From contig CBDATT010000002.1 in NCBI GenBank assembly GCA_965199885.1, positions 1 through 64,000 of the forward strand: DNA of 64,000 nt, in the 5' to 3' direction. Each line of letters begins with the position of its first letter. Position 1 is the first letter of the stretch. The notes beneath the pieces were generated by a model. It saw only the letters and a list, made by a program, of their open reading frames with translations. It was not told where the DNA came from and ran no database searches. The position numbers and the translations under genes were made by a program. Shown piece after piece: positions 6,337 to 35,009 of the stretch. The DNA is from Isosphaeraceae bacterium (GTDB taxonomy: Bacteria > Planctomycetota > Planctomycetia > Isosphaerales > Isosphaeraceae).

Positions 6337-6363
6337 CGACCCCTCCACGCGCCAGGAAATCGC

Positions 6364-10930: not shown

Positions 10931-11183
10931 GCATCCACCCTTCTTCCGCGCGGGCCAATCGTGTCCGGACTTTTGCTTGCCGCGATCAGGTCAGATTGAG
11001 TTGAATTCGAGCAGCCCGGACCAGAACGGCCCAGGCGAGGACTAGAATGAAGTGGCGAGTCCGGGGAAGACTCGCCGCGAGGCAAACCTGGATTGCTGTT
11101 GGACTTTGGACGCCTGGCGACCCCAAAAAGTTTCCGGCGTGTTGCTGAATTGCATCAACCGGCCGTCACCGAGCCGCCGAGTT

Positions 11184-14366: not shown

Positions 14367-15245
14367 TGAGGTCCTCCGGAAGAAGGCGCGGAAGGTGATG
14401 GGACAGGATGCGAAAGCCAATCAGATTGGATCAAAACGTCGGCGCGGCGCGGCGACGGGACACATCGCGAACGGAAGCGCCCCCTGCATCATTCTAGCTT
14501 GTCGAGACGATGCGTGAATCCAGGGGTCGGCAAATGGCGGGGATTCACCCTGTCGGCGGTGATCGACTCGCAGGTCGCCTCAACGGCGCAACAGGATGCC
14601 AACCGGCCGGATCAACGCGGAATTGCGCGGCCGATCTTTCCCCAGGCTACCACGCCCACCCCTGACCCACAAGCGGCGCAGGCAAAAACCAGTCTCTATC
14701 AGAGATCTTAGATTTGTTGTGTGGGTGCAACCCACCGTGAATTTGACCTGCTCCCACCAGGCACCTCGAATCAGATTCTGTGGTCTTTCAATGACCACGC
14801 CCACGATCAATGGGATCCCACTTTGTAAAGTCTGGATCTGGCAAAGAATTGACGCTCTGCCATCCGAAACTTCCCCCCTTCGGAGGCGGAGATGAGTACC
14901 AGCGCAAGAAAGGCGACCTCGCCTCGTCCGATGTGGCCTTACGAACCCGATTAGATTGTCTTAAATAGGGCGATGTGGACAGATTATTGAAAATTCGGAA
15001 ATTATTTTGCCAAAGTAAACTGAAATGTCTCGCGATCTCCGATACTATTTCTGTTCAAACGTGCCGACGGTTGCGTCCCGGTCGGGTGGGTGTCAGTTTT
15101 CCGGGGCCAGATTCTGCCTTTTTTGGTCGGTTCCGGTCCACCGCACACGGGGGGCGGCACCCCCTCGACCAGGACGCAACTGGGGCGCATGGGAGCCTCG
15201 CATCGTCGAATTTCACACCCAGGATCGCCGAGGGAGTCTGCATCC

Positions 15246-20797: not shown

Positions 20798-23470
20798 TCA
20801 ACGGTCGCGGCTGATCGACTTGCCGTCGGCGAGGGCCGCCTGCGCAGCGGCGAGGCGGGCGATCGGGACGCGGAAGGGGGAGCAGGAGACGTAGTCCATG
20901 CCGACCTTGTGGCAGAACATGACAGACTCGGGGTCGCCGCCGTGCTCGCCGCAGATCCCGACCTTGAGGTGCTCGCCTTTGGCCTTGCGGACGGCGCGGC
21001 CCTTGGTGGTCCCCATCTCGACAAGCTGGCCCACGCCCGAGGCGTCGAGCGTCTGGAACGGGTCCACCGGCAGGATCTTGTGCTCGACGTAGGCTGGCAC
21101 GAACGAGCCGATGTCGTCGCGGCTGAACCCGAAGGTCATCTGCGTCAGGTCGTTGGTCCCGAACGAGAAGAACTCGGCCTCCTCGGCGATCTTGTCGGCC
21201 GTCAGGGCAGCGCGGGGTACCTCGATCATGGTGCCGATCAGGTACTCGACCTTGGCGCCCGCCTTGGCCATGCACTCGTCGGCGATCCGGATCGCCCGCT
21301 TCTTGAGGAACGACAGCTCCTCGACGGTCCCGACGAGCGGGATCATGATCTCGGGCAGGACGTTCTTGCCCGCCTGCTTGACCTGAATGGCGGCCTCGAT
21401 GATGGCCCGGACCTGCATGTCGCCGATCTCGGGGAACTTGATCGCCAGGCGGCAACCACGGAGCCCGAGCATCGGGTTGGCCTCGTGGAGCGAGGCCACG
21501 CGGTCCTTGACCTTCTGGACCGGCACGCCCAGCTGCTTGGCGACTTCAGCCTGACCGGCCTCGTCGTGCGGCAGGAACTCGTGCAGGGGCGGGTCGAGCA
21601 GGCGGATCGTGACGGGCAGGCCGTCCATCGCCTCGAAGAGACCGACGAAGTCGGCCTTCTGGTAGGGTTCGAGCGCGGCGAGGGCCGACTTCCGGCCAGC
21701 CTCGTCGTCGGCGAGGATCATCTTCCGCATGTCGACGATCCGCTGCCCCTCGAAGAACATGTGCTCGGTCCGGCAGAGGCCGATCCCCTCGGCGCCGAAC
21801 TCGCGGGCCTTGAGCGCGTCCTTGGGCGAGTCGGCGTTGGTCCGCACTTTCATGGTCCGAACCTTGTCGGCGTAGGCCATGTAGGTGGCGAAGCTGCCGC
21901 TCATCTGAGCGTCGATCGTCGGGACCTGGCCGATCATGACGTCGCCGGTGGTCCCGTCGATGGTCAGCCATTCGCCGACCTTGACGACCTTGCCGCCGAT
22001 CGTGATCTGGCCGCCCTTCTCGTCGATCTGGAGGGCGTCGCAGCCGACCACGCAGGGCTTGCCCCAACCGCGGGCGACGACCGCCGCGTGGCTGGCCTTG
22101 CCGCCGGTCGCGGTCAAAATCCCCTTGGCCAGGTGCATCCCGGCGACGTCTTCGGGGCTGGTTTCCTTCCGGACGAGCATGATCGACTCGCCGGGGTGCT
22201 TCTCGGCGTACTCAACGGCAGCTTCGGCCGAGAGGATCACCTTGCCGGCAGCGGCTCCCGGGCTGGCGGCGATTCCCTGCGCAACGGCCTTGACGTCGGC
22301 CTTGGGGTCAAGGCTGGGCAAGAGCAGGTGGTTCAAGTCGTTCGGGTTGACCCGGTTGATGGCGGTATGCTCGGTGATCAGACCGGCTTCAACCATCTCG
22401 ACGGCGATCCGCACAGCCGAGCTGCCGGTTCGCTTGCCGGTCCGGGTTTGCAGCATATAGAGGGTGCCGTCCTGGACGGTGAACTCGATATCCTGCATCT
22501 CCTTGTAGTGCTGTTCGAGCTTCTGACGGATACCCATGAGCTGGTCATAGACCTTGGGCATGTCGTCCTGGAGGCGGCTGATCGGCTCGGGGGTCCGGAT
22601 GCCGGCGACGACGTCCTCACCCTGGGCGTTGATCAGGTAGTCGCCATAGAAGACGTCTTCGCCGGTGTTCGGGTCGCGGGTGAAGGCGACGCCGGTGCCC
22701 GAGTTCTCGCCCATGTTGCCGAAGACCATCGCCTGGACGTTGACGGCGGTGCCCTTCAGGCCGGTGATCCGCTCGATCCGGCGGTACTCGATCGCCTTCT
22801 TGCCTTCCCAGCTATTGAAAACGGCCATGATGGCCTTCCAGAGCTGGTCCTTCGGGTCCTGCGGGAAGTCCTCGCCGGTCCCTTTTTTGTAGACCGCCTT
22901 GTACTTCGTGACCAGTTCCTTGAGGTCGTCACCCGACAGTTCGGTGTCGAGCTGGACGCCGCGAGCATGCTTCAAGGTGTGGAGTTCATGCTCGAACAGC
23001 TCGTGCTCGACCCCCATGACGACCGAGCCGAACATGTCGATCAACCGGCGGTAGCCGTCGTAGGCGAACCGGACGTTGCCGGTCTTCTTGGCCAGCCCTT
23101 CGGTCGCCACGTCGGACAGACCAAGGTTGAGAATCGTGTTCATCATCCCGGGCATCGAGAGCGCAGCACCCGAGCGGACCGAGACGAGGAGAGGGTCGGC
23201 CGGGTCGCCGAGCTTGGCCCCCATCTCCTTTTCCACCTGGGCGATGGCGGCTTCGACCTGCGGCTTGGTCAGTTCGGGGAGCTTCTTCCCCAGCTCGTAA
23301 TACTCAGCGCAGACCTCGGTCGTGATCGTGAAGCCGGGGGGCACGGGGATACCGATCACGCTCATCTCGGCCAGGTTGGCCCCTTTGCCGCCGAGCAAGG
23401 ACTTCATGTCGGCCTTGCCCTCAGCCTTACCACCGCCGAAGGAATACACATACTTGTGCGAGTCGGACAT
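20798..23470 (-). CDS. ppdK: pyruvate, phosphate dikinase
   Basis: 890 aa with an N-terminal ATP-grasp region (GGKGANLAEM), the central phospho-His domain (GGKASHAAVVARGWG), and a C-terminal PEP-utilizer TIM barrel (ICGE...GMDYVSCSPFRVP). PPDK is unmistakable. Confidence 0.95.
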   Translation of the reverse strand: MSDSHKYVYSFGGGKAEGKADMKSLLGGKGANLAEMSVIGIPVPPGFTITTEVCAEYYELGKKLPELTKPQVEAAIAQVEKEMGAKLGDPADPLLVSVRSGAALSMPGMMNTILNLGLSDVATEGLAKKTGNVRFAYDGYRRLIDMFGSVVMGVEHELFEHELHTLKHARGVQLDTELSGDDLKELVTKYKAVYKKGTGEDFPQDPKDQLWKAIMAVFNSWEGKKAIEYRRIERITGLKGTAVNVQAMVFGNMGENSGTGVAFTRDPNTGEDVFYGDYLINAQGEDVVAGIRTPEPISRLQDDMPKVYDQLMGIRQKLEQHYKEMQDIEFTVQDGTLYMLQTRTGKRTGSSAVRIAVEMVEAGLITEHTAINRVNPNDLNHLLLPSLDPKADVKAVAQGIAASPGAAAGKVILSAEAAVEYAEKHPGESIMLVRKETSPEDVAGMHLAKGILTATGGKASHAAVVARGWGKPCVVGCDALQIDEKGGQITIGGKVVKVGEWLTIDGTTGDVMIGQVPTIDAQMSGSFATYMAYADKVRTMKVRTNADSPKDALKAREFGAEGIGLCRTEHMFFEGQRIVDMRKMILADDEAGRKSALAALEPYQKADFVGLFEAMDGLPVTIRLLDPPLHEFLPHDEAGQAEVAKQLGVPVQKVKDRVASLHEANPMLGLRGCRLAIKFPEIGDMQVRAIIEAAIQVKQAGKNVLPEIMIPLVGTVEELSFLKKRAIRIADECMAKAGAKVEYLIGTMIEVPRAALTADKIAEEAEFFSFGTNDLTQMTFGFSRDDIGSFVPAYVEHKILPVDPFQTLDASGVGQLVEMGTTKGRAVRKAKGEHLKVGICGEHGGDPESVMFCHKVGMDYVSCSPFRVPIARLAAAQAALADGKSISRDR

Positions 23471-23652
23471 CGGTCGTGCAAACTCCCTGAAACCACGTCA
23501 ATCAAAAGGTGAGCGCTACCTGGGCATCCCTGCCGCGGGGCCATCGTCCAGGCCCAATCATCCTAATCACCGGATGATCCACACGTTAATCGACCTCCCG
23601 AGCGGGCGTCAAGGCGCCAGGGGCTGGCCTGGGTCGGTGTGGGGGCGTCGGT

Positions 23653-24258
23653 TCAGGCCAGCGGCGCGGCCGGGAACACGCCCAGATAAATCTCGCGCAG
23701 CGGCACGGCGACGGCCGGATCGGGCAAGGTGAGGATGCCGTCGGGCCAGGCCAGGTCGGTCCGGGGCCACGAGTCGTCGGCCTGCCGGTCGTACTGCTCA
23801 ACAGCGGGTGACTCTTGCCCGACGAGGATGTAATGCCTCAGCGATGCAATCCGGCGGTAGTGGGCGAACTTGGCACCCCGGTCCGACTTCTGGGTGCTGG
23901 GTGACAGGATCTCGATGATGACCCGGGGGTTGGTCAAGGTATCGAACTGGTTGTCGATGAACTGGGGTTCGTCGCAGACGATGATGAAGTCAGGGTAGGT
24001 GTAGGAACCATCGGTGATGGCCACCCGGAGGTCGTTTGAACCGACGGTACAGGGACCGCCCAGGAGGTGACCGTAAATCCTCGCCTGGAGATTGCTGGAG
24101 ATCCGGATGTGCCGGTAACTGGTCCCAGCCATGGCGTGGGGCGACCCTTCGCGGGGGTACATCACGCCGTTGAAGAACTCGCTCTTGAACTCGGCCTCGC
24201 GCTCGATGGCCAGGTATTCGGCTCCGGTCATGCGGCTCGGGCGGGGAGAGGACGCCAT
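23653..24258 (-). CDS. Uma2 family endonuclease (DUF820, PD-(D/E)xK fold)
   Basis: 201 aa. The motifs EYLAIEREAEFKSEFFNGVMY, PDFIIVCDE, IIEILSPST and KFAHYRRIASLRHYILV match Uma2/DUF820 family signatures. Confidence 0.6.
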   Translation of the reverse strand: MASSPRPSRMTGAEYLAIEREAEFKSEFFNGVMYPREGSPHAMAGTSYRHIRISSNLQARIYGHLLGGPCTVGSNDLRVAITDGSYTYPDFIIVCDEPQFIDNQFDTLTNPRVIIEILSPSTQKSDRGAKFAHYRRIASLRHYILVGQESPAVEQYDRQADDSWPRTDLAWPDGILTLPDPAVAVPLREIYLGVFPAAPLA

Positions 24259-24417
24259 GGGTATCTCCTGCGCGGACGAGGGGGCAAGGAACCTGGATAA
24301 ATGATGGCCAGATTAACACCAAAGGCCCCACGCGGCGACTGGCAAACCGGTGGGTGGGCGGTTACTCTGAGAGCAGGAACTGAGCCCGATCACCGTTGCC
24401 GACGCTGAGGGTCGCTC

Positions 24418-25146
24418 ATGCAACGCCATCTTGTCCCGCAGATCACTCCTCTCGACGACCCGGACTACCCCTCGCGTGACGGTAACCCGATGTCCGATAA
24501 CATGCTCCAGTTTCGCTGGATCACGACGGTCCAGGGGGGGCTCGACACCTTGTTCGGCGATGATCCTCAGGTCGTCGTGGCGGGCGACTGCCTGTGGTAT
24601 CCAGTGGAAGGGAACAACAAGATCCGGATCGCCCCCGACACGATGGTGATCTTCGGTCGGCCCCGAGGGGACCGAGGATCGTACATTCAGCACCGCGAGG
24701 CGGGCATTCCAGTTCATGTCGCCTTTGAAGTCCTCTCGCCGGGCAACCGCGCGGGGGAGATGCGCCGCAAACTGGCGTTCTACGAGACGTACGGCGTCGA
24801 GGAGTATTACATCCTCGACCCCGATTTCGCCCGCCACAAAGGTTACCTGCGCGAGGGGGATAAGCTTGTGCCCGTCCCCGACCTGTTTGGCTTCACCAGC
24901 CCCCGACTGGGCATTCGGTTCGAGATGACGCGAACCATGAAGAAGGAACTCCGGATCGTGACGCCCAGTGGCACCCTGTTCCAACCCTATTTCGATATTG
25001 CCCGGAAACTCGACGTGTCGGAGCGGCGGATCGAAGCGGAACGCGAGCGGGCCAACGAGGCGGAACTACAGGCGACCGCCGACCGTGAGCGAGTCGAGCG
25101 GTTGCTGGCGCAGTTGCGGGCCTCCGGCATGGAGCCGGACGCCTGA
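24418..25146 (+). CDS. Uma2 family endonuclease (DUF820) with C-terminal coiled-coil extension
   Basis: 242 aa. The motifs PDTMVIFGRP, AFEVLSPGNRAGEMRRKLAFYETYGVEEYYILDP match the DUF820 core. The C-terminus is an Arg/Glu-rich coiled-coil. It is divergent from the other Uma2 gene. Confidence 0.6.
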   Translation: MQRHLVPQITPLDDPDYPSRDGNPMSDNMLQFRWITTVQGGLDTLFGDDPQVVVAGDCLWYPVEGNNKIRIAPDTMVIFGRPRGDRGSYIQHREAGIPVHVAFEVLSPGNRAGEMRRKLAFYETYGVEEYYILDPDFARHKGYLREGDKLVPVPDLFGFTSPRLGIRFEMTRTMKKELRIVTPSGTLFQPYFDIARKLDVSERRIEAERERANEAELQATADRERVERLLAQLRASGMEPDA

Positions 25147-25266
25147 CCGGTCTGACGGTTTGAGCCAATTCACCTTGTCGATCCGGTGAAATTGGCGATA
25201 ATTTCGCGGTGGTGATCGGTCAAAGGATCGAGAACCGGGTTGAGACGGATCTCAGGGCGAGACTTG

Positions 25267-26172
25267 ATGCCGATCCAGTTCAGCATGCTGGCCAGTGGTT
25301 CGAGGGGCAACACGGCCCTCGTGCGCGCGGGGCATAGCGGGGTCCTGATCGACTTTGGCCTGATCCCGAGCGCCCTTGAAGGGCGGCTCGGCGAGGTCGG
25401 CGCGGGGTGGCGGCACATCTCGGCCGCCCTGTTAACCCATACCCACGGCGACCATGCCAACCCAGCCACCTTGCGGTGGTTTGCGAACCAGAAGATCGTG
25501 CTGTACTGCCATGAGGGGCACCGCAAGAATCTCGGGAATCGGCCGGGGTTCATGGAGCTGGACGAGCTGGGGTTGGTCCGGCACTTTGATGACCGGCCGT
25601 TCCTGACGCCAGCGGGGATGCGGGTGGAACCGGTCGAGTTGAGCCACGACGGCGGGCCGACGTTTGGTTTTCGGATCGAGGCGCGGGCCGAGCGGAAGGC
25701 GCGGCCGGTCTCGGTCGGGTACATGGCCGATACGGGAACCTGGACCGACGCGATGGTCGAGGCGATGAGCGACGTCGCCCTGCTCGGGGTCGAGTTCAAC
25801 CACGACGTCGAGTTGCAGCGGCGGTCGGGGCGCGCTGGGTTCCTGATCGCGCGGAACCTTGGGCCGCGTGGGCATCTCTCGAACGATCAGGGGGCGAAGC
25901 TGGTCTCGGCGGTCCTGAAGCGGTCGTCGCCGGGGTCGCTCCGGCATGTGGTCCTGCTCCACCTGAGCGAGCAATGCAACCGCCCGGCGCTCGCCATCGA
26001 GGAGGCCACCAACGCCGTCCGCGCCTCGGGCCGGAAGGTGGCTGTTCATGCCGCCCGCCAGCGTGATGCCTTCCCCAATATCCACGTCCTGCCCGGGCGT
26101 AAATCCCGAGCCGTGGCCCCGACGGCGCCGGGTCCCGCCTCCGGCTTCCTGTTTCCCTGGGAAGTGGATTGA
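25267..26172 (+). CDS. MBL-fold metallo-hydrolase
   Basis: The HTHGDH zinc motif (LLTHTHGDHANP), a downstream His and an HLSNDQG motif are present. Start chosen at MPIQFSMLASGSRGN. Confidence 0.7.
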   Translation: MPIQFSMLASGSRGNTALVRAGHSGVLIDFGLIPSALEGRLGEVGAGWRHISAALLTHTHGDHANPATLRWFANQKIVLYCHEGHRKNLGNRPGFMELDELGLVRHFDDRPFLTPAGMRVEPVELSHDGGPTFGFRIEARAERKARPVSVGYMADTGTWTDAMVEAMSDVALLGVEFNHDVELQRRSGRAGFLIARNLGPRGHLSNDQGAKLVSAVLKRSSPGSLRHVVLLHLSEQCNRPALAIEEATNAVRASGRKVAVHAARQRDAFPNIHVLPGRKSRAVAPTAPGPASGFLFPWEVD

Positions 26173-26873
26173 TCGTGGGCCGAGACTTCTTCCTGAGCGA
26201 TGTTCACCTGCGGCTCGACTTCCCCGAGCGCGGGGCTCGGCTGGCAGCGCTGGTGGATCAGCTCGATCCGAGCGACTCGCTGACGATCGTCGGTGACCTC
26301 TGCGACTTCTGGTTCGCCGCCCGCCAGCAGCGGCTCGACCCGATAATCGGGCCGGGCATCCGGGCCCTGGCCCAGTTCCGCCAGCGTGGGGGCCGGATCA
26401 CGATCCTGGCGGGCAACCACGACGCCTGGCTCGGGCCGTTCTATGAGCAGACCTTCAGCGCAACCTTCGTGCCTGACAAGCTGGAGCGGACCGTCGGCGG
26501 CCTCCGGACCCTGATTACCCACGGCCACCGGCTCGGAGCGCGAACTCCCTGGAAAGTCGGGCTCGAAAGCCGGGCCTTCCTCGCCGCGTTCCGGGCCGTG
26601 CCCGCAACCCTGGCCGACTTCCTCGGCAACCAGTTGCACCAAACCAACGAAGCCCACCAGGACGAGTTCACCCAGCGCGGGCTGGATGCCTACCAGCGTT
26701 ACGCCAATGGCGTCGGCGACCGCTATGACCTGGTGATCCTCGGGCACGTCCACCGCCCGCTCGATACCGGGTCCACGCATCCCAGGTTGGTGGTGCTGGG
26801 AGGCTGGCATGAGGGGTCGGCCTACCTCGTTGCGGACGGGGCCGACGTCCGGCATGTCGTGCAGCCAGGTTGA
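26169..26873 (+). CDS. metallophosphoesterase, LpxH (UDP-2,3-diacylglucosamine hydrolase)-like
   Basis: Calcineurin-like motifs SDVHL (DxH), VGDLCDFW (GDxxD), AGNHDAW (GNHD/E) and GHVH are present. It overlaps the MBL gene by 4 nt. Confidence 0.55.
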   Translation: MIVGRDFFLSDVHLRLDFPERGARLAALVDQLDPSDSLTIVGDLCDFWFAARQQRLDPIIGPGIRALAQFRQRGGRITILAGNHDAWLGPFYEQTFSATFVPDKLERTVGGLRTLITHGHRLGARTPWKVGLESRAFLAAFRAVPATLADFLGNQLHQTNEAHQDEFTQRGLDAYQRYANGVGDRYDLVILGHVHRPLDTGSTHPRLVVLGGWHEGSAYLVADGADVRHVVQPG

Positions 26874-27231
26874 CGGTTGTCCGTGGAATTCGGTGGATGC
26901 GCGCGGAGAAGGGTTGCAAATCCCCGCTGCTTTTCCAATAATTGCCCGCGCCGAGTCAATTCGGTGAGCATACGGTTGATCCATCGAGTGGCCGCATCCG
27001 CATGATCCGACTCCCGCCGTTTGGTTCGGGGTCGGTCTGGCTGTTCGGTCGACGTCCGGAGTTTCGGATTGTCACCTGGCTGCTCTTGCTCCGGGAGCCG
27101 ATCCGGCCCTCGCGCTGGCTCCCGTCGGTCCGCCCCAGTCGTCGCCCTGCCGCGATTCTGAGATCGGGGTGGCCGCAACGGATCATCTGGTGGCCCTCAC
27201 GACGGGGTTGACCGGAACAAGGACCGACCGA

Positions 27232-28455
27232 ATGACCGTCTTCCAAGAGTTTTTCGATAACTTCAAGCACAACCTATTTAAGCCTTTGCTCCTCTTCTTC
27301 TACATGGGCTTTCTGGTCCCGATCCTCGGGGTCGAGTTCGAATTCCCCCACGTCATCTATCAGGGGCTGACAATCTACCTGCTGGTTGCGATCGGCTGGA
27401 AAGGGGGGGAGGAACTGGCCCGGCTCAAGGCGGACGAGTTGACGCAAGCCCTGGAGTTCATGGGCGTCGGGTTCTTGACCAACTTCGTGATCGGCATCAT
27501 GGCGTTTCTGGTCCTGCGTGCTTGCACCAGGCTCCGCCGGGTTGACGCTGCCACCGTGGCTGGCTACTACGGTTCGGACTCGGCGGGGACGTTCGCGACG
27601 TGTCAGGGGGTGCTCGGCGGCTTGATCGCCATGGGGCAGTCGGAGTACCAGTATGCTCCCTACATGCCGGTCATGCTGGCGGTGATGGAGATTCCCGGCT
27701 GCCTGGTCGCCTTGTTCCTCGTAACTCGCCTGCGGTCCACCGGGATGGATGCCCTGGGCTACATGCCCGACGAGGTGGGGTACGACCCCCAGGCCCAGCG
27801 TGCTCCGCTTGCCGAGGAACAAGGGCACGGCCACGCCGCCCCGACCTCGCACGGGACGCAGGTCGGCGAACTGAGTCATGAGTCGCGCGGGGCCAAGAAG
27901 CCGCCCGGCATGTTCAGCGGCGAACTCCTCCACGAAGTCTTCCTCAATCCGGGGCTGTATCTGCTCTTTGGGGGCATCCTGATCGGGTTCGTCAGTGGCA
28001 CCCAGAACAAGCCGAACAAGGATGATATCACCGGTCCCGATGACAAACTGTTTCTGGAGATGTTTCAGGGTCTGCTCTGCCTGTTCCTGCTTGAAATGGG
28101 GATGACGGCGTCGCGCAAACTCAAGGATTTGCAGCGAAGCGGGGCATACTTCATCGTGTTTGGACTGCTGGCCCCGGTCGTGTTCGCGACGCTCGGGATC
28201 GCGGTTGCTCACATGTTCAGCATGGCTATCCATCAACCCTTACAACTCGGCACCTATGTCTTGTTCTCGGTGCTATGCGGGGCCGCGTCCTATATCGCCG
28301 TGCCGGCGGTCCAGCGGCTCGCGATTCCCGAGGCAAGTCCCACGCTGCCGCTGGCGGCATCGCTGGGCTTGACATTCTCTTTTAATGTCACAATCGGCAT
28401 TCCGCTCTACATTCAGATCGCAAAAGCGGTGATGAAGACTTTCCCGGCGGGATGA
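27232..28455 (+). CDS. SbtA-family (DUF897) putative sodium-dependent bicarbonate transporter
   Basis: Two inverted membrane repeats are separated by a cytoplasmic loop. I aligned conserved blocks by eye to cyanobacterial SbtA: LLVAIGWKGGEEL, RVDAATVAGYYGSDSAGTF, LFLLEMGMTASRKLKDL and AASYIAVPAVQRLAIPEASPTLPLAASLGLTF. Confidence 0.65.
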   Translation: MTVFQEFFDNFKHNLFKPLLLFFYMGFLVPILGVEFEFPHVIYQGLTIYLLVAIGWKGGEELARLKADELTQALEFMGVGFLTNFVIGIMAFLVLRACTRLRRVDAATVAGYYGSDSAGTFATCQGVLGGLIAMGQSEYQYAPYMPVMLAVMEIPGCLVALFLVTRLRSTGMDALGYMPDEVGYDPQAQRAPLAEEQGHGHAAPTSHGTQVGELSHESRGAKKPPGMFSGELLHEVFLNPGLYLLFGGILIGFVSGTQNKPNKDDITGPDDKLFLEMFQGLLCLFLLEMGMTASRKLKDLQRSGAYFIVFGLLAPVVFATLGIAVAHMFSMAIHQPLQLGTYVLFSVLCGAASYIAVPAVQRLAIPEASPTLPLAASLGLTFSFNVTIGIPLYIQIAKAVMKTFPAG

Positions 28456-28613
28456 ACCGCGTATAATGAAGATCTCACGTCGGCCCGGCGGTCCCGGTCC
28501 GTGGCTTGGCATCACGTCCCCGGGGGGGAAGACGTGGTGCCAGTTGCGGGCCGGGACCACCGGGCCGGCTTCATTGGTGGCTGGTCGATATTAACGGTGC
28601 TGGTTGATTGGCA

Positions 28614-29417
28614 TCAACGGTCGGCTTCCAGGCTGGCGATCAGGTCTCGAAGACCGGTATCGAACGGCTGGAGTTCAAGTGACCGCCGCCAGACGGCGAC
28701 CGCTTCCTCCCGCTTGCCCAGTTGCATCAGGCACTGAGCCAGACCGCCGAGCGCCCCGAAGTGGTACGGGTTCCGATCGAGCACCTGGCGGCAATCCGCG
28801 GCACTGGCAGCATGCCGACCCAGGAAAAAGTGAGCAATCGCCCGCTGATTGTAAGCCTCGGCGAAGTCGGGCGCCTCGGCAATGAGTCGGTTGGCGGCCT
28901 CGATCGCCTCGGGCAGTCGGTCCTGACCGATCAACTTGCGGATCTGGGTGAGTTCGTCGTTCTGCGCGGCCGACCCGGCGCGGTACCAGATCGCCCAGAG
29001 GGCATCATGCGCCAGACCCCGGACCATCGGGTCCTTGTCCTTGAGCGCTTTGGCCACGGTGGCGTTGCTGGCGGCGAACCCACCATAAAGACCCAGGCTT
29101 ACGACCGATGCCCGTCGTGCCCGGAGGTCGGTCGATTCCAGCAACCGGCCGAGCGTCGCCTCGGTGTAGCGGGCCGACACGTTCCGGTGGAACCCATCGA
29201 GATCCCCATCACGGAGCAGGTTGTCGTAGAGGTCAACCAGAACCGAAGTGCTGCTGTTGGGTGCGGAAGCCATGAGATCAGGTCCATTCCGGCGCGAATC
29301 CGAGGAGGAACCAACCCCGCCGGCAGTGACCGTCGGCAAGCCACCCAGCGCTCCCGCCAGGAACCAGGCCAAAGCTCCAGAACGGGATTTCGAGCGGGCG
29401 AGCAGTCTCGGCGGCAC
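28614..29417 (-). CDS. secreted HEAT/TPR-like repeat protein
   Basis: The signal-like N-terminus is followed by alpha-helical repeats (DKDPMVRGLAHDALWAIWYR; AEAYNQRAIAHFFLGRHAASAADCRQVLDRNPYHFGALGGLAQCLMQLGKREEA). Confidence 0.45.
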   Translation of the reverse strand: MPPRLLARSKSRSGALAWFLAGALGGLPTVTAGGVGSSSDSRRNGPDLMASAPNSSTSVLVDLYDNLLRDGDLDGFHRNVSARYTEATLGRLLESTDLRARRASVVSLGLYGGFAASNATVAKALKDKDPMVRGLAHDALWAIWYRAGSAAQNDELTQIRKLIGQDRLPEAIEAANRLIAEAPDFAEAYNQRAIAHFFLGRHAASAADCRQVLDRNPYHFGALGGLAQCLMQLGKREEAVAVWRRSLELQPFDTGLRDLIASLEADR

Positions 29418-29703
29418 GAGGTACGCTCCGATCGGGTCGGAAAAGATTGGGGGCGGAAGTGACGGACAGAGTTCACTTCAGTCTAACAATTTCCGCCGTG
29501 GTCGCTCGCCAGGAATTTTCGGGTTCTGATCAGGATCTGCTCGATTTTGGAGGCCATCGAGACGATGACAACCGCTTTTTCTGAAGGTGACGAGAAAAAT
29601 CGATCGCTGATTCTCGACTTTTTGTCTAGGGTTCAGCTGGCTGGACTGGCTATCCTGGGGCCGGGTCGGGTGGTTGAGGTGAGCGCAAGCGGAGGGATGG
29701 CTC

Positions 29704-31347
29704 ATGGCTCAGGTCGTGCGGGGTGCGGTGGGATTGATCGTGGTCCTGGGTGGGCTGGCCGCTCTGCCTGCGGTGGCGCAGCCGGTCGCCAACTGGGATG
29801 AGCGGATCGCGCCGATCGTCAACGCGAAGGAATACGCGGGGGCGCACTGGGGGATGCTGGTCGTCGACCTGGCGACGGGTCGCCCAGTTTTCGAGCGGAA
29901 CCCTGATCAACTCTTTTGCCCGGCTTCGGTCACCAAGCTATTCACAACCGCCGCCGCGCTGGCCGACCTTGGCGCGGATTATCGGTTCAAGACGCCCGTT
30001 GTGCGGCGGGGTGAGGTCAAGGACGGGACGCTCCAGGGGGACCTGATCCTGATCGCTCAGGGCGACCTGAGCCTCGGGGGTCGGACCGGTCCGGATGGGT
30101 CGCTCCTGTTCACCGATGGCGACCACTCGTACGGCAACGGCGACCTCGTCCCGTGCGACCCGCTCGCCGGCCTGGTCCACCTCGCCCGCGAGGTCCACAG
30201 CAGCGGCATCCGCGCGGTGACCGGCGACGTGATTGTGGATGACCGGCTGTTCGAGGCCGCCGTCAGCACCGGGAGCGGCCCAACGCACGTCTCGCCGAGC
30301 GTGATCAACGACAACATCATCGACGTGGTCGTCACTCCCGGCACCAAAGTCGGCGAGCCCGCGAAGGTTCGCTTGATCCCCGAAACGACCTTTGCCGCCG
30401 CCGACGTCCGGGTCGAGACCACCGCCGAAAACTCGGGTGCGGCGTCAGTCCAGGTCCGGTCGGTCGGACCCCGCCGGTTCACCGTCCGCGGCAAGATTCC
30501 GCTCAATCATAAGCCAGTCAACGACACCTATGAGGTCGACGAGCCGGCCGCCTTCGCCCGCGCCCTGTTCATCGAGACCCTGCAAAGCCGAGGTGTCAGC
30601 GTGCTGGGGGCATCGCCGCTGGGCGACAACCATGCCGTCGACTTGCCCGCGAAACCCGACACCCGCAAGCTCCCGACGGTGGCCGAATACACCTCGCCCG
30701 AACTCCGCGAGTATATCCGGGTGATCCTCAAGGTCAGCCAGAACCTCCACGCCAGCACCTTGCCGCTGATCCTCGGCGCTCACCACGGCGAGATCACCCT
30801 CAACCGCGGCCTCCGCCGCGAGGCCGAGATTCTGGAAAAACTCGGCGTCGATACCAAAACGATCTCGTTCGGCGGCGGCGCTGGCGGGTCCAGGTCCGAC
30901 ATGGCAACCCCCCGCGCCACCGTTGCCTTGCTGCGTGCGATGGCGGCTCGCCCCGACTTCGCTGCCTTCGACCAGGCGCTGCCCGTCCTTGGTCGCGACG
31001 GGACGCTGGCCAAGGCGGTTCCTCCCGAGAGTCCCGCGCGTGGCCATGCTCGCGCCAAGACGGGCAGTTACTGGGTCGATAACCCGCTCAACGGCCACCC
31101 GGTCCTGACCAGCAAGGCCCTTGCGGGCTACATGGAGACGGCATCGGGCCGGAAACTGGCCTTCACCTTCTACGTCAACGACGTCCCCTCGCAGGCCATC
31201 GCTCCGACCGTCAGTGAGGCGTCGTCCTTGACCGGCAAGAAGCTCGGTAAGCTCTGCGAGGTCTTCTACACCGACACCGATCCCGCTCCCGCCGAGACCC
31301 CCGCCCCCGCGCCTCCCGCTGCCGAATCGTCCAAGACGGGGAAGTGA
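29704..31347 (+). CDS. dacB: D-alanyl-D-alanine carboxypeptidase/endopeptidase, PBP4 (peptidase S13)
   Basis: Signal peptide. The SxxK motif PASVTKLFTTAAAL, plus YRFKTPV...GDLILIAQGDLSLG and a C-terminal KTG motif (AKTGS), make the PBP4 family architecture clear. Confidence 0.8.
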   Translation: MAQVVRGAVGLIVVLGGLAALPAVAQPVANWDERIAPIVNAKEYAGAHWGMLVVDLATGRPVFERNPDQLFCPASVTKLFTTAAALADLGADYRFKTPVVRRGEVKDGTLQGDLILIAQGDLSLGGRTGPDGSLLFTDGDHSYGNGDLVPCDPLAGLVHLAREVHSSGIRAVTGDVIVDDRLFEAAVSTGSGPTHVSPSVINDNIIDVVVTPGTKVGEPAKVRLIPETTFAAADVRVETTAENSGAASVQVRSVGPRRFTVRGKIPLNHKPVNDTYEVDEPAAFARALFIETLQSRGVSVLGASPLGDNHAVDLPAKPDTRKLPTVAEYTSPELREYIRVILKVSQNLHASTLPLILGAHHGEITLNRGLRREAEILEKLGVDTKTISFGGGAGGSRSDMATPRATVALLRAMAARPDFAAFDQALPVLGRDGTLAKAVPPESPARGHARAKTGSYWVDNPLNGHPVLTSKALAGYMETASGRKLAFTFYVNDVPSQAIAPTVSEASSLTGKKLGKLCEVFYTDTDPAPAETPAPAPPAAESSKTGK

Positions 31348-31414
31348 CCCTTCCAGACGAGATCCGATCTGGTCGGATGCCTTGATCCGATCAGCCTTGC
31401 CCAATTTTTGGTTG

Positions 31415-31427
31415 CCATGTAGCATGG
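31415..31427. promoter_or_regulatory. perfect 13-bp palindrome CCATGTAGCATGG upstream of the Cys-rich secreted gene trio
   Basis: It lies 48 nt upstream of the 31475 start codon, embedded in TTGCCATGTAGCATGGAAGTTG. Confidence 0.3.
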
Positions 31428-31474
31428 AAGTTGTCGATATCCGTTTGGGGTTTTCCTCGCTCGTTGGAACCTGA

Positions 31475-31945
31475 GTGATCATTATGCCGTTCCTACGCTC
31501 CTACCTCCGGCTCGTCTGCCTCACCCTGGGGGTGATCGTCGCGAGTTCGTGGCTGGGACAAGCGGCATCGGCCTGTTCGATGCGGATGGCGGATGGCTCG
31601 ACGTGCGGGGCGGCGGCGAAGTGTGGTTGCTGCTCAGAACCAACCCAGGTTGAGGCCAAGGCAACGAGGCAAGTTGCCACGATTGCGCCTGCCCGTGAAG
31701 TTGGGTCCAGTTCGCTCTGCACCAATTCGGCAACCTGCGTTTGCGGGTCGGATCGACCCACCGCCCCTGAGCCCAGGTCGGGCCGGCTGGCAAGCATGAA
31801 TCGCGTCTCCCTGACGCGGTCGGTCCTGGAAGTGACCTGGATCAATCCACCTGATCTGGTGGGATCGAGCCCGGTCCTTCATCAAGCAGAGGTCTGGGTG
31901 CATGAGGCACCGATCTATCTCCGCTGCTCTCGCTTTCTGATATGA
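31475..31945 (+). CDS. hypothetical secreted cysteine-rich protein
   Basis: N-terminal signal/TM region, then CSMRMADGSTCGAAAKCGCCSEP...CTNSATCVCG. It is the first of three consecutive small Cys-rich secreted genes. Confidence 0.3.
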   Translation: MIIMPFLRSYLRLVCLTLGVIVASSWLGQAASACSMRMADGSTCGAAAKCGCCSEPTQVEAKATRQVATIAPAREVGSSSLCTNSATCVCGSDRPTAPEPRSGRLASMNRVSLTRSVLEVTWINPPDLVGSSPVLHQAEVWVHEAPIYLRCSRFLI

Positions 31946-32182
31946 CGATGCCTCGGCGCTGAGGTTCTCGCGGCTCGCGTTGTCCGTGCTGACATCGAGT
32001 CGCTGGGCATCCCCGCGCCGGGGACGAGGATGACGATCTGGCTGGCTCCTGACTGTTTGAGGAACTGCCTGGCCGGGTCGTCCTCCCTTTCCCTGGTCAA
32101 TCCGGGGTCAGGTAACCGTGCGGTCCGCGTTGGGCGGAGCGACGGGTTCCGATTCGTCATGGCAAGAACGGGAGTTGATCCG

Positions 32183-32455
32183 ATGATCCGACGGAAATTG
32201 ATGGGATTGAGTGGCCTGCTGATCCTGGCCGCCTTGGTGGGCACTCAGGCGGCGGACAGGTCGAAGGCTTCGGCCGCCCGGACCGCGTGTGCCTGCTGTG
32301 GCGCTGCCTGCACTTGCCCGGCTTGCACCTGCGATGCTCAGTCCAAGATGGGCGCTGGCTGTGATTGCTGCGGCGACACCTGCTGCACGACGGAGCAAGC
32401 GGCAGTCGAATCTGCCACCAAGTCGTGCTGCTCGACCAAGACCGTGGCTCACTGA
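32183..32455 (+). CDS. small secreted metallothionein-like cysteine-rich protein
   Basis: Signal peptide MIRRKLMGLSGLLILAALVGTQA. The mature part, about 65 aa, has 14 Cys in CxC/CC clusters (ACACCGAACTCPACTCDAQSKMGAGCDCCGDTCCTTEQ...CCSTK). Confidence 0.4.
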   Translation: MIRRKLMGLSGLLILAALVGTQAADRSKASAARTACACCGAACTCPACTCDAQSKMGAGCDCCGDTCCTTEQAAVESATKSCCSTKTVAH

Positions 32456-32604
32456 GTCTCTATCCATAAAAAGAGGCCGATTCTCGATGGCAGTCGAGAA
32501 CCGGCCCGGTGGGATTCGCACGGTCTGAAGTCCGCTGAATCTGGGAGCCGCTCACGTTGGGTGGGCGGCCCCGCATCTTGATTGTACGCTCCAGGACGAA
32601 AAAA

Positions 32605-33066
32605 ATGGACCGTCGCGCATTGTTTGGTCTGATGGCGGCCGGAACCGCCGGCTTGCTGACCCTGAATTCGGGCAAATCCGCCACGGCAGCCTTTGTTCCC
32701 GCCGACAAGATGAAGGCGATGGAAGACTGCCTCAAGGCGTGCAAGAGCTGTGCGGCTCTTTGCGAGGAAACCTTCCACCACTGCTTCGGCCTGGTGACCG
32801 AGGGGAAGAAAGAGCACGCGAAGGCAGCCGAACTGGCGCTGGATTGTGCTGACTTCTGTGCCCTGTCGGTGAAGATGATGCTTCGTCAGAGCGATCTGAT
32901 GCCGTTTTCGTGCGGAGCATGCGCTGAGGCTTGCAAGAAGTGCGGCGACGCTTGTGCTCCGTTCGACAGCGAGATGATGAAACAGTGCACCGCCGCCTGC
33001 CGCGAGTGCGAAAAGACCTGCAAGGCGATGGCCGCAGCCATGCCAGCGGGTCATCATCACGAATGA
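32605..33066 (+). CDS. four-helix-bundle copper-binding protein (DUF326), Csp-like copper storage protein with Tat signal
   Basis: Twin-arginine signal MDRRALFGLMAAGTAGLLTL. The mature part has repeated Cys ladders along helices (CLKACKSCAALCEE..HHC; ALDCADFCALS; CGACAEACKKCGDAC; CTAACRECEKTCKAM) and an HHHE C-terminus. Confidence 0.6.
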   Translation: MDRRALFGLMAAGTAGLLTLNSGKSATAAFVPADKMKAMEDCLKACKSCAALCEETFHHCFGLVTEGKKEHAKAAELALDCADFCALSVKMMLRQSDLMPFSCGACAEACKKCGDACAPFDSEMMKQCTAACRECEKTCKAMAAAMPAGHHHE

Positions 33067-33152
33067 TCCGGTAACCCACTGTGGTGCTGGAATCCGCCGG
33101 ACCGCAACCGAGCAATCGGTTACGGCCCGGCTGGCTTCATTTCAGGCCAATC

Positions 33153-35009
33153 TTACTCATCGACGCCGCGATGGCAGCTTTCCGCCGGAGTGGGCAGGGG
33201 GGCCATGCTCGGATGCAGGTGGGGGGCGTGTGGGGGACGATCGGCGTGGTCGGCCCGGCGGTTGGCGTGCGTGTGCGTGCGGGGGACGACCTCGGTGTCG
33301 TCGGGGTTCATCGCGTGGACGCGCAGCTCGTGGGTTGGCAACGGGATGATGATCCCGGCGGCGGCAAACCGGCGCTGGATTTCGCCGTTGAGACGGTGGC
33401 GCACGCGACCGAGGACGCTTGGGTCGGGGACGTAGGTGTAGAGAATGAAGTCGAGCGCGGCCGAGCCGATTGAGTCGAGCCAGGCCGATGAGACGGGGTT
33501 GTTCAGGACGTCGACGTCGGCATGCGCCAGGCTCAGCAAGAGGTCCGTCACCTTGTCGGCGTCGGTCCCGAGCATGACGTTGACGTGGATCGTCAGGCGA
33601 ACAACCTTGTCCTTGTGGGTCCAGTTGACGAGGTTGCCGGTAATGAACGCGCGGTTGGGCACGATCATGCTCTGGTTGTCGCCGTTGACGATGGTGGTCG
33701 CGCGGATATTGATCCGGTCGACGCTGCCGGTCATCCCGCCGACGGTGACGAGGTCGCCAACGCGGATCGGGCGCTCGACGAGGAGGATGATCCCGCTGAC
33801 GAAGTTCGAGACGATCTCCTGCAACCCGAATCCGAGCCCAACGCCGAGCGCCGCCAGGACCACGCCGATCCGCTCCATCCCCAGGTGGACCGCCGACAGC
33901 CCGGCCAGCGCGCCGACCGCCAGCACGACATAGCGGCACAAGGTCACCATGGCGAACCGAACGCCGGGGTCGTCACTCATCCGGGGGAAGACGACCACGG
34001 TGAAGAAAGTCTGCGTGTTCCGCCAGACCCCCGCCGTGGCGACCAAAATCACCAGCATGACGACCAGGTTCCCCACGGTGACGACCTGATTTGGGCCGAC
34101 CGACCAGAGCTGGTGATCGCCGATGTAGCGGAACAGCGCCAGGTCGACGTCGAACAGGTAAGCCGCCACGACGGCTCCCAGGATCACGACACTGATCCGG
34201 GCCAGCTTGCGGAGCCGGGCCACGGCATCCTCGACCGGCGCTCCCGAGGCATCCGTCGGCGTCGAGGTCGTGGCGTCAAGCGTCGGCGAGGTCGTGGTTG
34301 TGGTCGTATTGTGCCAGCGCCAGGCGTGGTGGTTGATCAGTTGCAACAGGCCGAGATAAATCCCCCAGCAGACCGCCACCAGCACCAGCATCGACCCGCC
34401 GGCGTAGGTCAACCGGCGCGCGGTGAAGTGGTAACCGATGACGTCGAGGACGAAGATCGACGCCAGCGCTGTCAGGATCAACGGGGCAACCACGCGGCGG
34501 TGCCGCCCAACCCAACCGAGCCGCGCCGGGTCGGCCGTCAGCCAGATCAGGACCGGCGACGTGCCCCGGAGCAGCCGATAGGCCAGAATCCAGCAGGTCA
34601 GCTCGAAACCAATCACGAGCAACCGCCCGAGCGACCCCGCCGCGATCGGCCGACCCCCCGGCGCGATCCACCCCTGACTCAGCAGGAACTCGGGGATCAG
34701 CAGGCACGCCCCGGTAATCGCCAGGGTGTGGCAGACCCGCTTGAACTGCCGACGGACGTCATGCGGCGCCCCGAGGTCGGCGTCGGCCCAGCCGCCCGAG
34801 CGAAACGTGACCCGCCCGGCCAGCGAAACAAACAGCGCCACCGCCAGGCCCAGCAAGACGATGCACGCCGGCCAGGCCAGGTCGCGCGGCCAGGGAGCCG
34901 ACTTCACCGCGAACGCCACCAGGGCCAGATACACCGGCCACGTCGCCGCCGAGACCAGGCCATAGGCCAATCGCCGTAATTTCCGCATCGTTTCCGCTCC
35001 GGTCATCAT
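33153..35009 (-). CDS. mechanosensitive ion channel, MscS family (MscK/KefA-like membrane and channel portion)
   Basis: About 10 TM helices, then the MscS core GLGFGLQEIVSNFVSGIILLVERPIRVGDLVTVGGMTGSVDRINIRATTIVNGDNQSMIVPN and a C-terminal cytoplasmic domain. Confidence 0.8.
   Translation of the reverse strand: MMTGAETMRKLRRLAYGLVSAATWPVYLALVAFAVKSAPWPRDLAWPACIVLLGLAVALFVSLAGRVTFRSGGWADADLGAPHDVRRQFKRVCHTLAITGACLLIPEFLLSQGWIAPGGRPIAAGSLGRLLVIGFELTCWILAYRLLRGTSPVLIWLTADPARLGWVGRHRRVVAPLILTALASIFVLDVIGYHFTARRLTYAGGSMLVLVAVCWGIYLGLLQLINHHAWRWHNTTTTTTSPTLDATTSTPTDASGAPVEDAVARLRKLARISVVILGAVVAAYLFDVDLALFRYIGDHQLWSVGPNQVVTVGNLVVMLVILVATAGVWRNTQTFFTVVVFPRMSDDPGVRFAMVTLCRYVVLAVGALAGLSAVHLGMERIGVVLAALGVGLGFGLQEIVSNFVSGIILLVERPIRVGDLVTVGGMTGSVDRINIRATTIVNGDNQSMIVPNRAFITGNLVNWTHKDKVVRLTIHVNVMLGTDADKVTDLLLSLAHADVDVLNNPVSSAWLDSIGSAALDFILYTYVPDPSVLGRVRHRLNGEIQRRFAAAGIIIPLPTHELRVHAMNPDDTEVVPRTHTHANRRADHADRPPHAPHLHPSMAPLPTPAESCHRGVDE

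Follow-up and report, generated by a model that had tools for sequence, protein, structure and literature searches.

A stand-alone SbtA-family permease gene in an Isosphaeraceae bacterium: a likely bicarbonate importer with no adjacent sbtB

The 64-kb stretch of Isosphaeraceae DNA analysed here (the window) encodes a permease of the SbtA family. The explanation that we consider likely as a whole is that this protein imports bicarbonate together with a cation and feeds it to carboxylases, as a stand-alone transporter with no co-encoded SbtB. A secondary-active, elevator-type transporter of the inner membrane, built on the 5+5 transmembrane (TM) fold common to ASBT/NTCP, would most likely carry HCO3- inward along with a cation. 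It would supply the cytoplasmic HCO3- used by bicarbonate-dependent carboxylases under CO2 limitation or at high pH, the consumers being the carboxylation of acetyl-CoA, pyruvate or PEP and the synthesis of carbamoyl-phosphate. The gene would be transcribed alone from a 358-nt upstream intergenic region, and at this locus the transporter would operate without a PII-like SbtB valve encoded beside it. We infer the substrate from the gene context of relatives rather than from the window locus, and we likewise infer the coupling ion, the direction of transport and the anaplerotic role. The host is probably a heterotrophic planctomycete, and our literature search found no experimental report on any member of the permease clade. 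The gene itself adds one more uncharacterised member to a known family, and there is nothing surprising about it.

The permease gene and its downstream neighbour are as follows.

27232..28455, plus strand: sbtA-family (PF05982) permease gene, apparently monocistronic, supported by Pfam, a PDB match, an AF2 model and homologue N-termini
28614..29417, minus strand: convergent TPR/HEAT-repeat gene, matching Pfam TPR families

The permease reading frame is real and well delimited, running from the ATG at 27232 to the TGA ending at 28455 and encoding 407 amino acids. This start agrees with the N-termini of homologues in the alignment; initiation at the in-frame GTG at 27169 would lengthen the protein by 21 amino acids that are present in no homologue. 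A Shine-Dalgarno-like AAGGA lies at 27219-27223, 9-13 nt before the ATG. The first-pass annotation had called the protein an SbtA homologue, and the profile search bore this out, placing it in PF05982 and not in another permease family. The Sbt_1 profile matched residues 18-398 over positions 1-308 of 308 with 320.3 bits (cut-off 27) and an E-value of 1.7e-95, which rules out chance. Synechocystis SbtA (7cye) was the sole match by phmmer against the PDB (E 4.9e-19), and the search of NCBIfam returned no model, and no equivalog, for the permease. NCBI labels the homologues "sodium-dependent bicarbonate transport family permease", and the automated-pipeline annotation of the gene appears correct.

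Structure prediction pointed to the same family. The AF2 model (pLDDT 70, pTM 0.72) was helical throughout, and the best five PDB matches found by Foldseek were all SbtA (8zor, 7egk, 7egl, 7cyf, 7cye), with E-values of 4e-10 to 5e-8, target-normalised TM-scores of 0.69-0.74 and 20-21% identity. With these values and the phmmer E-value, the block-by-block alignment with cyanobacterial SbtA described earlier reflects a resemblance that is real but remote. As modelled, the protein has ten TM helices, in two inverted repeats of five with TM4 and TM9 as the crossover helices. The two repeats, which had been read from the sequence, are not detectable there: HHalign of the N-terminal half against the C-terminal half was not significant (E 0.14), so the repeat claim rests on the SbtA-like fold of the model, with the full-length profile match beside it. 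The next-best structural matches were the Na+/bile-acid symporters ASBT/NTCP (BASS), which have the same 5+5 crossover fold (E about 1e-3, TM-score 0.45-0.57) but are only about 10% identical, belong to a different Pfam family and were not recovered by phmmer against the PDB.

We compared individual residues with those of Synechocystis SbtA, taking residue roles from the published structural work (PMC8352866) and pocket residues from Liu et al. (2021) only. Column counts were made over 85 clade proteins, with the M(D/E)IP motif and P329/P358 as anchors of the pocket alignment. Three segments of the permease are relevant.

27565..27591, plus strand: YYGSDSAGT, residues 112-120, aligning with the SbtA TM4 crossover FGAVSGST (backbone Na+ site and Ser114)
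27727..27927, plus strand: central loop between the two halves, from the translation, predicted to be cytoplasmic by homology
28282..28305, plus strand: AASYIAVP, residues 351-358, aligning with the SbtA TM9 crossover ASSSDISGP

In Synechocystis SbtA, Ser114, Tyr140, Ser324 and Ser327 have been proposed to bind HCO3-, on the basis of docking and mutagenesis and not of a resolved substrate; alanine in place of Ser114 or Ser324 cuts transport to 10-40% (PMC8352866). Two of these four are kept in all 85 clade proteins, as S117 (for Ser114) and S353 (for Ser324), and two are replaced, Tyr140 by L149 (83 of 85) and Ser327 by A356. Around the first serine, Y113, G114, S115 and T120 were also invariant, and D116, a clade-specific acidic residue in place of Val113, was found in 83 of 85 proteins. 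Around the second, Y354 (in place of Asp325), I355, A356 and P358 were present in all 85. In SbtA, backbone carbonyls where TM4a and TM9a cross make up the Na+ site; judged by alignment, the permease has the corresponding crossover motifs, YGSDSAGT and AASYIAVP, with D116 as a new addition. The C-terminal block noted in the first pass is present as AASYIAVP...IPEASP...SLGLTF at residues 351-382 and is invariant within the clade, but Synechocystis SbtA has only the skeleton AS.I..P......IP.A.P. The central loop begins with a clade-conserved motif, GMDxxGxMPDExGYDP, followed by a variable His/Gly-rich stretch, and pLDDT falls below 50 for residues 192-221. The motif is retained equally in stand-alone, PII-linked and Dab/CA-linked members.

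The permease thus resembles SbtA1 of the beta-cyanobacteria (Synechocystis Slr1512; PDB 7CYE, 7CYF, 7EGK, 7EGL, 8ZOR; TC 2.A.83) in its full-length Pfam family and fold, the equivalents of Ser114 and Ser324, the G-x-x-S and P anchors of the TM4 and TM9 crossovers, the M(D/E)IP motif and a long disordered central loop. It differs in having only 20-25% identity, in the replacements Tyr140 to Leu, Ser327 to Ala, Asp325 to Tyr and Val113 to Asp, and in having neither an adjacent sbtB nor an upstream sbtC-like ORF. The hosts differ as well, ours being a non-photosynthetic planctomycete with no RuBisCO or carboxysome gene in the 64-kb window. SbtA2 of the alpha-cyanobacteria is a second deeply diverged branch of PF05982 that is about 25% identical to SbtA1 and is still a bicarbonate transporter (PMC13187645), so divergence at the level of the permease is compatible with the same substrate. 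SbtA2 is typically found beside sbtB2 and is reported to be chloride-dependent (PMC13249358); we liken it to the permease by description, not by sequence.

No PII- or SbtB-like ORF was found anywhere in the 64-kb window by tblastn, phmmer or a profile of planctomycete SbtB-like proteins, and the window likewise contained no carbonic anhydrase (CA), including beta-CA (PF00484), and no dabA (PF10070) or dabB. The locus therefore has neither the adjacent co-directional PII-like sbtB of a cyanobacterial-type sbtA-sbtB operon nor the adjacent dabA, dabB or beta-CA of a cluster for uptake of dissolved inorganic carbon (DIC). The earlier statement that no PII-like gene follows the permease holds; only 158 nt separate its stop codon from the next gene, which leaves no room for one. 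The small ORF at 28501-28737, which had been described as not PII-like, matches no family, extends into the 3' end of the oppositely oriented TPR gene and is probably not a gene. Nor is the layout an assembly artefact: it recurs in independent assemblies, being found at 10 loci of the window's Isosphaeraceae subclade that include two complete genomes, Isosphaeraceae EP7 (L002) and Tundrisphaera lichenicola (L003).

To place the locus among its relatives, we surveyed gene context at 82 related loci (55-82% identity), seeking partners within 4 kb. The clade is large and tightly conserved, occurring in 565 species-level genomes that are mostly of heterotrophic Planctomycetota with some Nitrospirales, and the closest named relatives are Isosphaeraceae. 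An SbtB-like PII gene (PF00543) was present in 17 of the 82 loci, and two of these (L046 and L069) were confirmed as PF00543. Eleven loci had dabA, usually with a dabB-like PF00361 gene, dabB was found in 12, and beta-CA in five. Altogether, 27 loci had PII, dabA or one of the three profile-detected CAs and two more had dabB only, for a total of 29; the arrangements included sbt-dabA-dabB and sbt-CA-PII. Lack of an adjacent PII gene is thus the majority state (about 80% of related loci), contrary to the implication of the first-pass annotation that an orphan sbtA is unusual. The window's subclade was never found with PII, dabA/dabB or CA partners nearby: none of its 10 loci has PII within 4 kb, and all 17 PII-linked loci fall outside it.

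This context is what argues for bicarbonate as the substrate. The relatives with sbtB-like, beta-CA or dabAB genes alongside are 55-70% identical to the permease and have the same pocket residues, which makes the "different substrate" suggested in the earlier reading less likely, while its other proposal, inorganic-carbon uptake in a probable heterotroph, is supported. The columns aligning with the SbtA pocket do not differ between partner-linked and stand-alone members. Surveys from the Scott laboratory of SbtA in chemolithoautotrophic Proteobacteria and of a heterotroph "DIC toolkit" describe non-cyanobacterial PF05982 proteins with DAB complexes and carbonic anhydrases and show that the toolkit genes are widespread among heterotrophs (PMC10880623). 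The planctomycete clade has the same DAB and CA associations as these proteobacterial systems, but the window gene has none and its host is presumed to be a heterotroph. The Planctomycetota clade is not mentioned in that paper (0 occurrences of "Planctomycet"), and earlier work already raised anaplerotic fixation as the purpose of sbtA in heterotrophs (PMC5932025; PMC10880623). The practical value of the present finding is modest, and the absence of SbtB is unremarkable because most close relatives are also without it. Partners tied to inorganic carbon at about a third of the examined loci nevertheless support investment by heterotrophs in its uptake, and the clade, as a source of naturally SbtB-free SbtA variants, could interest those engineering bicarbonate pumps in chloroplasts or industrial hosts.

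The alternative that survives best, though we think it distinctly less probable than stand-alone operation, is that a gene outside this locus encodes an SbtB-type PII protein, or some other regulator, that binds the permease and gates it in trans. By sequence, the stand-alone proteins can hardly be told apart from the PII-linked ones, so any PII-binding surface would be retained in the former. The sole position separating PII-linked members from the window's subclade is K/R296. We also considered that stand-alone proteins might have lost a PII-binding surface; K/R296 was the only difference that the residue comparison yielded, and it gives no evidence of such a loss. Some related genomes carry two or three permease paralogues in differing contexts, and cyanobacterial SbtB also acts on transporters encoded elsewhere, according to a 2026 review (PMC13249358). 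Weighing against regulation in trans are the lack of a PII-like ORF in the window and the complete separation of the subclade from PII-linked loci.

The signatures that set the clade apart, namely YGSDSAGT with its Asp by the cation site, AASYIAVP and the loop motif GMDxxGxMPDExGYDP, could mark the Planctomycetota and Nitrospirales proteins as a mechanistically distinct third SbtA subfamily, in which bicarbonate uptake has a different coupling ion or stoichiometry and is perhaps self-regulated by the loop. We regard this as unlikely. Within such a subfamily, Tyr354 of AASYIAVP may stand in for the lost Tyr140, and loop self-regulation, if true, would explain how most clade members manage without SbtB.

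A little less probable again is a change of specificity on an SbtA-like fold, in which the substrate of the clade is not bicarbonate but, for example, an organic acid or a different small anion, or in which the coupling ion is H+ and not Na+. The four pocket and crossover replacements are found in 83-85 of the 85 clade proteins, and the acidic D116 beside the Na+ site leaves room for a different coupling ion or even another substrate. The low identity to SbtA1, the absence of an NCBIfam equivalog match, the description of PF05982 by Pfam as a "superfamily" and the differing ion dependence of SbtA2, on chloride (PMC13249358), are all in keeping with such a change. However, a substrate other than DIC would not readily account for the repeated occurrence of members with the same pocket beside dabAB, beta-CA and sbtB-like genes, and SbtA1 and SbtA2 both carry bicarbonate despite their own divergence (PMC13187645).

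We find it improbable that the permease, in carrying bicarbonate and a cation, serves chiefly to balance pH or ions or to provide an outlet, and not to supply carboxylases. In Synechocystis, SbtB restricts the leak of bicarbonate (bioRxiv 10.1101/2023.08.10.552651; PMC13360264), and a transporter without this "valve" could run backwards; an MscS-family mechanosensitive channel gene, assigned by synteny with L001, also lies nearby at 33153-35009. The dabAB and CA context of relatives, in contrast, indicates accumulation of DIC and not its export.

The next gene downstream is a convergent TPR gene, as first described, and its true start is probably at 29273, giving 219 amino acids. Being convergent, it is not co-transcribed with the permease gene. 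That this protein is a lineage-specific replacement for SbtB is very improbable and effectively refuted: in 12 related loci an orthologue (50-67% identity) does follow sbt in convergent orientation, but in all three of the other Isosphaeraceae genomes examined (Singulisphaera PoT, Tundrisphaera TA3 and the MAG MFD09671.bin.2.6) no Sbt_1 gene lies within 5 kb of the orthologue, and TPR is more often accompanied by a BirA-like gene. In Tundrisphaera TA3, an inversion parts TPR from sbt while the other neighbours are kept. Because the orthologue stands apart from Sbt in these three genomes, the TPR neighbour is inherited gene order and not a functional partner of the permease. Two neighbours were also weighed as hints of a link to carboxylation, PPDK, whose gene lies 4 kb upstream, and the BirA-like gene that adjoins TPR in relatives; both were set aside as synteny only, since these genes are on the opposite strand, have other genes between and vary from locus to locus.

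Two features lie upstream of the permease gene.

26874..27231, plus strand: upstream intergenic region of 358 nt, in which no conserved or structured element was detected
26914..26942, plus strand: sigma-70-like consensus match TTGCAA-17-AATAAT (1 site against 0.4 expected)

The long leader described earlier as 350 nt (26880-27231) does exist, although it spans 358 nt. Its reported 7-bp stem TCCGGAG...CTCCGGA is inexact: TCCGGAG (27055-27061) faces CTCCGGG (27089-27095), giving 6 bp and a G·U pair, and eight inverted repeats of about this size occur in the region, this one included. Long upstream intergenic regions in relatives (about 520 nt in L001 and about 816 nt in L002) and the small upstream ORF sbtC of Synechocystis (PMC13360264) lend some precedent to control of the permease gene by a riboswitch, an attenuator or a small ORF like SbtC. 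Such control is nonetheless highly improbable given no Rfam match at the gathering score or at E<=1, a folding z-score of -1.29 (a stability that is not unusual), no nucleotide conservation against the upstream regions of nine subclade loci, one of them encoding a protein about 80% identical, and no small ORF that is conserved or hydrophobic and TM-like (top 18-residue hydropathy 0.69). The region is probably the promoter and 5' UTR of the permease gene, and the sigma-70-like match, which is a consensus match and not evidence of function, is a possible promoter within it.

The permease gene (sbt) and annotated neighbors in the window are as follows.

20798-23470, minus strand: pyruvate phosphate dikinase (PPDK) gene, 4 kb upstream of sbt
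25240-26172, plus strand, as sbt: upstream metallo-beta-lactamase (MBL)-fold gene
26169-26873, plus strand, as sbt: upstream LpxH-like phosphoesterase gene, then a 358-nt gap
27232-28455, plus strand: sbt, ATG 27232 to TGA 28455, 407 aa
28614-29417, minus strand: TPR/HEAT-repeat gene converging on sbt, 158 nt past its stop; probably starting at 29273 (219 aa), like its homologues

The ATG start agrees with homologue N-termini (M-x-x-(F/L)-x-x-F-x-(D/E)-N-(F/V)-x-H-N-L-F-K-P-L) and has AAGGA 9-13 nt 5' of it; the longer alternative from GTG 27169 adds 21 residues absent from every homologue. The protein matched Pfam PF05982 (Sbt_1) along the whole profile (1-308/308, 320 bits, E 1.7e-95) and none of the NCBIfam models, and its sole sequence relative in the PDB was Synechocystis SbtA (E 4.9e-19). 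An AlphaFold2 model built from 14 sequences of its Planctomycetota/Nitrospirales clade (mean pLDDT 70, pTM 0.72; low confidence for the central loop, some shorter segments, and residues 1-40, where pLDDT was <50) retrieved SbtA as all top five Foldseek matches in the PDB (8zor, 7egk, 7egl, 7cyf, 7cye; E 4e-10 to 5e-8, target-normalised TM-score 0.69-0.74, identity 20-21%), followed by ASBT and NTCP. The SbtA-family assignment is therefore secure, as the first-pass annotation had it, although the protein resembles cyanobacterial SbtA only remotely. The pair of inverted repeats that the annotation also described was not demonstrable in the sequence (HHalign of half against half, E 0.14) but would follow from the predicted fold. 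The observation and central reading of the first-pass annotation hold. Automated annotation already names the family correctly, and the finding is an ordinary one, an uncharacterised representative of a transporter family that is already known.

Searching with the window protein returned 3285 matches; the best 120 were 59-100% identical, the few named sources among them were Isosphaeraceae, Pirellulales, and Planctomycetaceae, and NCBI names these homologues 'sodium-dependent bicarbonate transport family permease'. Among genomes scanned at one per species, 565 encode a relative. The best 80 loci (55-71% identity) fell into three groups: Isosphaeraceae (Tundrisphaera, Singulisphaera, Paludisphaera, Tautonia), other planctomycetes (Gimesia, Planctomicrobium, Schlesneria, Kolteria, Pirellulales), and four Nitrospira/Nitrospirales MAGs. 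The membrane core is very highly conserved in the clade, with large blocks invariant between orders. A sizeable fraction of members (proteins P0118, P0093, P0081, P0069, and many matches of 470-650 aa) carry an N-terminal extension ahead of the core, a hydrophobic anchor plus a ~100-250 aa domain that is probably periplasmic (PF04225 is also listed in two matches); the window protein is without it. The Nitrospirales MAGs (loci L069, L072, L080, L082), from autotrophic nitrite-oxidiser lineages, encode a member 62-66% identical to the planctomycete protein, suggesting that the gene moved laterally between Planctomycetota and Nitrospirota or that the bins are contaminated, and three of the four (L069, L072, L082) have genes for PII and a Tll0287-like protein (PF11845) downstream of sbt.

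To describe gene context, ORFs were called in 82 related loci (L numbers), neighbors were clustered, and representatives were checked against Pfam.

Genes within 4 kb of sbt in the 82 loci
SbtB-like PII gene: 17/82 (PF00543 confirmed in L046, L069)
dabA: 11/82 (PF10070, 786 bits in L065)
dabB-like gene: 12/82 (PF00361)
beta-carbonic anhydrase (CA): 5/82 (PF00484 confirmed in L048; L034, L074 by tblastn)
histidine kinase/response regulator pair: 13-16/82, typically divergent upstream where gene order is resolved

At least one inorganic-carbon gene adjoins sbt in 27 of these loci (29 with two dabB-only loci), which, by guilt by association, argues strongly for a role of the clade in handling inorganic carbon. 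Gene orders included sbt-CA-PII (L038, L066), sbt-dabA-dabB (L013, L018, L041, L056, L065, L081), and sbt-PII-sbt (L040, L079). Only a minority of the 82 loci (~21%) have a PII gene beside sbt, and a missing SbtB is the norm in the clade. The kinase/regulator pair (for example L029 4859-5659, L039 3365-4894, L049, L050, L063, L078) is absent from the window and suggests dedicated transcriptional control of sbt in the loci that have it. At L040 (12-3350) and L079 (3523-7275), one sbtB-like PII gene is flanked in tandem by two divergent SbtA-type genes, first a distant paralogue (~32% identical) and then the clade member. Plasmid pPOT-2 (L018; NZ_CP186276.1, 201 kb) of the heterotrophic planctomycete Singulisphaera sp. 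PoT carries sbt (5242-7233), then dabA and dabB, adjoined by a regulator-like gene (4137-4895; HTH_17 and PTS_EIIA_2). The cluster looks like a mobile inorganic-carbon-uptake module; a second sbt paralogue (L054) lies on the chromosome.

The analysis shows the family and fold, the local lack of partner genes, and the retention of that state in the subclade. The best-supported reading is that a heterotrophic, Isosphaeraceae-like planctomycete uses this stand-alone permease to take up bicarbonate together with a cation; it would supply bicarbonate-dependent carboxylations. Gene context in relatives points to bicarbonate as the substrate. The family and established physiology, in which E. coli without carbonic anhydrase requires CO2 or a bicarbonate transporter (PMC13187645), suggest the coupling ion, transport direction, and anaplerotic role. 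A role for sbtA in anaplerotic fixation in heterotrophs is already in the literature (PMC5932025; PMC10880623).

One of the two main residual uncertainties is a PII protein encoded elsewhere in the genome that acts on the permease in trans. Within the whole 64 kb, tblastn, phmmer, and a custom profile found no PII/SbtB-like ORF, in keeping with the first-pass annotation's claim of a missing SbtB; GlnB of E. coli and SbtB of Synechocystis served as queries, and the profile came from 12 planctomycete SbtB-like proteins. The small ORF at 28501-28737, rightly described as not PII-like, matched no known family and runs into the end of the TPR gene on the opposite strand. No alpha-, beta-, or gamma-carbonic anhydrase was found in the window by tblastn, and RuBisCO, carboxysome, Dab, and carboxylase genes were absent from the annotated window (Pfam on ORFs of at least 120 aa, with four further genes by synteny with locus L001). 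Two long antisense ORFs overlapping the LpxH-like and sbt genes (26046-26984, minus strand, 312 aa; 27274-28236, minus strand, 320 aa) were rejected as shadow ORFs typical of high-GC DNA.

The other main uncertainty is a changed ion or substrate specificity of the whole clade. In Synechocystis SbtA, Liu et al. placed Na+ on the backbone carbonyls of Phe110, Gly111, Ala112, Ala320, and Ser322 and docked HCO3- on Ser114, Tyr140, Ser324, and Ser327, the latter backed by mutagenesis (PMC8352866). An alignment of 86 sequences, with the M(D/E)IP and Pro329/Pro358 motifs as anchors, was used to map the residues.

SbtA residue, window residue, and frequency over 85 clade proteins
Ser114, S117, 85/85
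Tyr140, L149, 83/85
Ser324, S353, 85/85
Ser327, A356, 85/85
Asp325, Y354, 85/85
Val113, D116, 83/85

Half of the proposed HCO3- ligands are thus kept in the window protein, and the differences are common to the whole clade, including members beside sbtB, carbonic anhydrase, or dabAB. The loop motif GMDxxGxMPDExGYDP occurs throughout the clade, and K/R296 is the sole column discriminating PII-linked proteins from the window subclade; nothing in their sequences sets the stand-alone proteins apart in function. We consider it unlikely that the large Planctomycetota/Nitrospirales clade forms an SbtA subfamily with a mechanism of its own and mostly independent of SbtB.

A neighbor-joining tree grouped the window protein with those of nine Isosphaeraceae loci (L001, L004, L003, L002, L006, L005, L025, L068, L008; 66-80% identity), none of them with a PII, Dab, or carbonic anhydrase gene nearby. 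The absence of an adjacent sbtB, which the first-pass annotation had left open to a corrected assembly, recurs in two complete genomes among them, Isosphaeraceae EP7 (CP151667.1) and Tundrisphaera lichenicola P12, and an assembly artefact is therefore ruled out.

The convergent TPR gene, correctly named earlier as the next gene, is common to most subclade loci, with a BirA-like ligase gene beyond it in some, and members of its orthologue family are found widely among Isosphaeraceae. We rejected the TPR protein as a functional partner because no Sbt_1 gene lies within 5 kb of the orthologue in Singulisphaera sp. PoT, Tundrisphaera sp. TA3, or MAG MFD09671.bin.2.6; the adjacency is thus inherited gene order. 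Tundrisphaera TA3 keeps the same neighbors (peptidase S13, MscS, PPDK, MBL, LpxH-like), and an inversion sets TPR apart from the block carrying sbt in the window. This locus (L084; CP195100.1) shares PPDK, MBL, LpxH-like, TPR, peptidase S13, and MscS genes with window 20798-35009, with the PPDK-to-LpxH block inverted and PPDK beside TPR.

The leader and its stem carry no signal. The 358-nt intergenic region had no Rfam match at gathering score or E<=1, its folding was no better than that of shuffled sequence (z = -1.29), and against the upstream regions of the nine subclade loci only flanking coding sequences aligned, even with L001, whose protein is ~80% identical. The supposed 7-bp stem is TCCGGAG/CTCCGGG, that is, 6 bp plus a G·U pair, and is one of eight similar inverted repeats in the region. 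The leader holds no conserved or hydrophobic small ORF resembling SbtC, recently described in cyanobacteria (PMC13360264); a single sigma-70-like match (26914-26942) is a possible promoter.

The remaining window content is typical for a planctomycete (type II/IV secretion ATPases, N-methyl/DUF1559 proteins, an ECF sigma factor, a Ser/Thr kinase with WD40 repeats). A divergent Uma2-family pair (PF05685, putative restriction endonuclease fold; 23653-24258, minus strand, and 24418-25146, plus strand) sits between PPDK and the MBL/LpxH-like pair, where L001 has unrelated small genes and Tundrisphaera TA3 a PemK toxin gene. Three consecutive small cysteine-rich ORFs lie at 31475-31945, 32030-32455, and 32557-33066 (plus strand). 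The last has a twin-arginine-like signal (MDRRALFGLMAAG...), repeated CxxxC motifs, and a sub-threshold DUF326 match (E 0.007), and is a candidate copper-storage-like four-helix protein. The cluster at 2840-14420 (minus strand) encodes three T2SSE-type ATPase paralogues, a single T2SSF platform protein, and three large proteins with an N-terminal methylation motif. It is a type IV pilus or a system resembling type II secretion, and its pseudopilins (461-656 aa) are unusually large.
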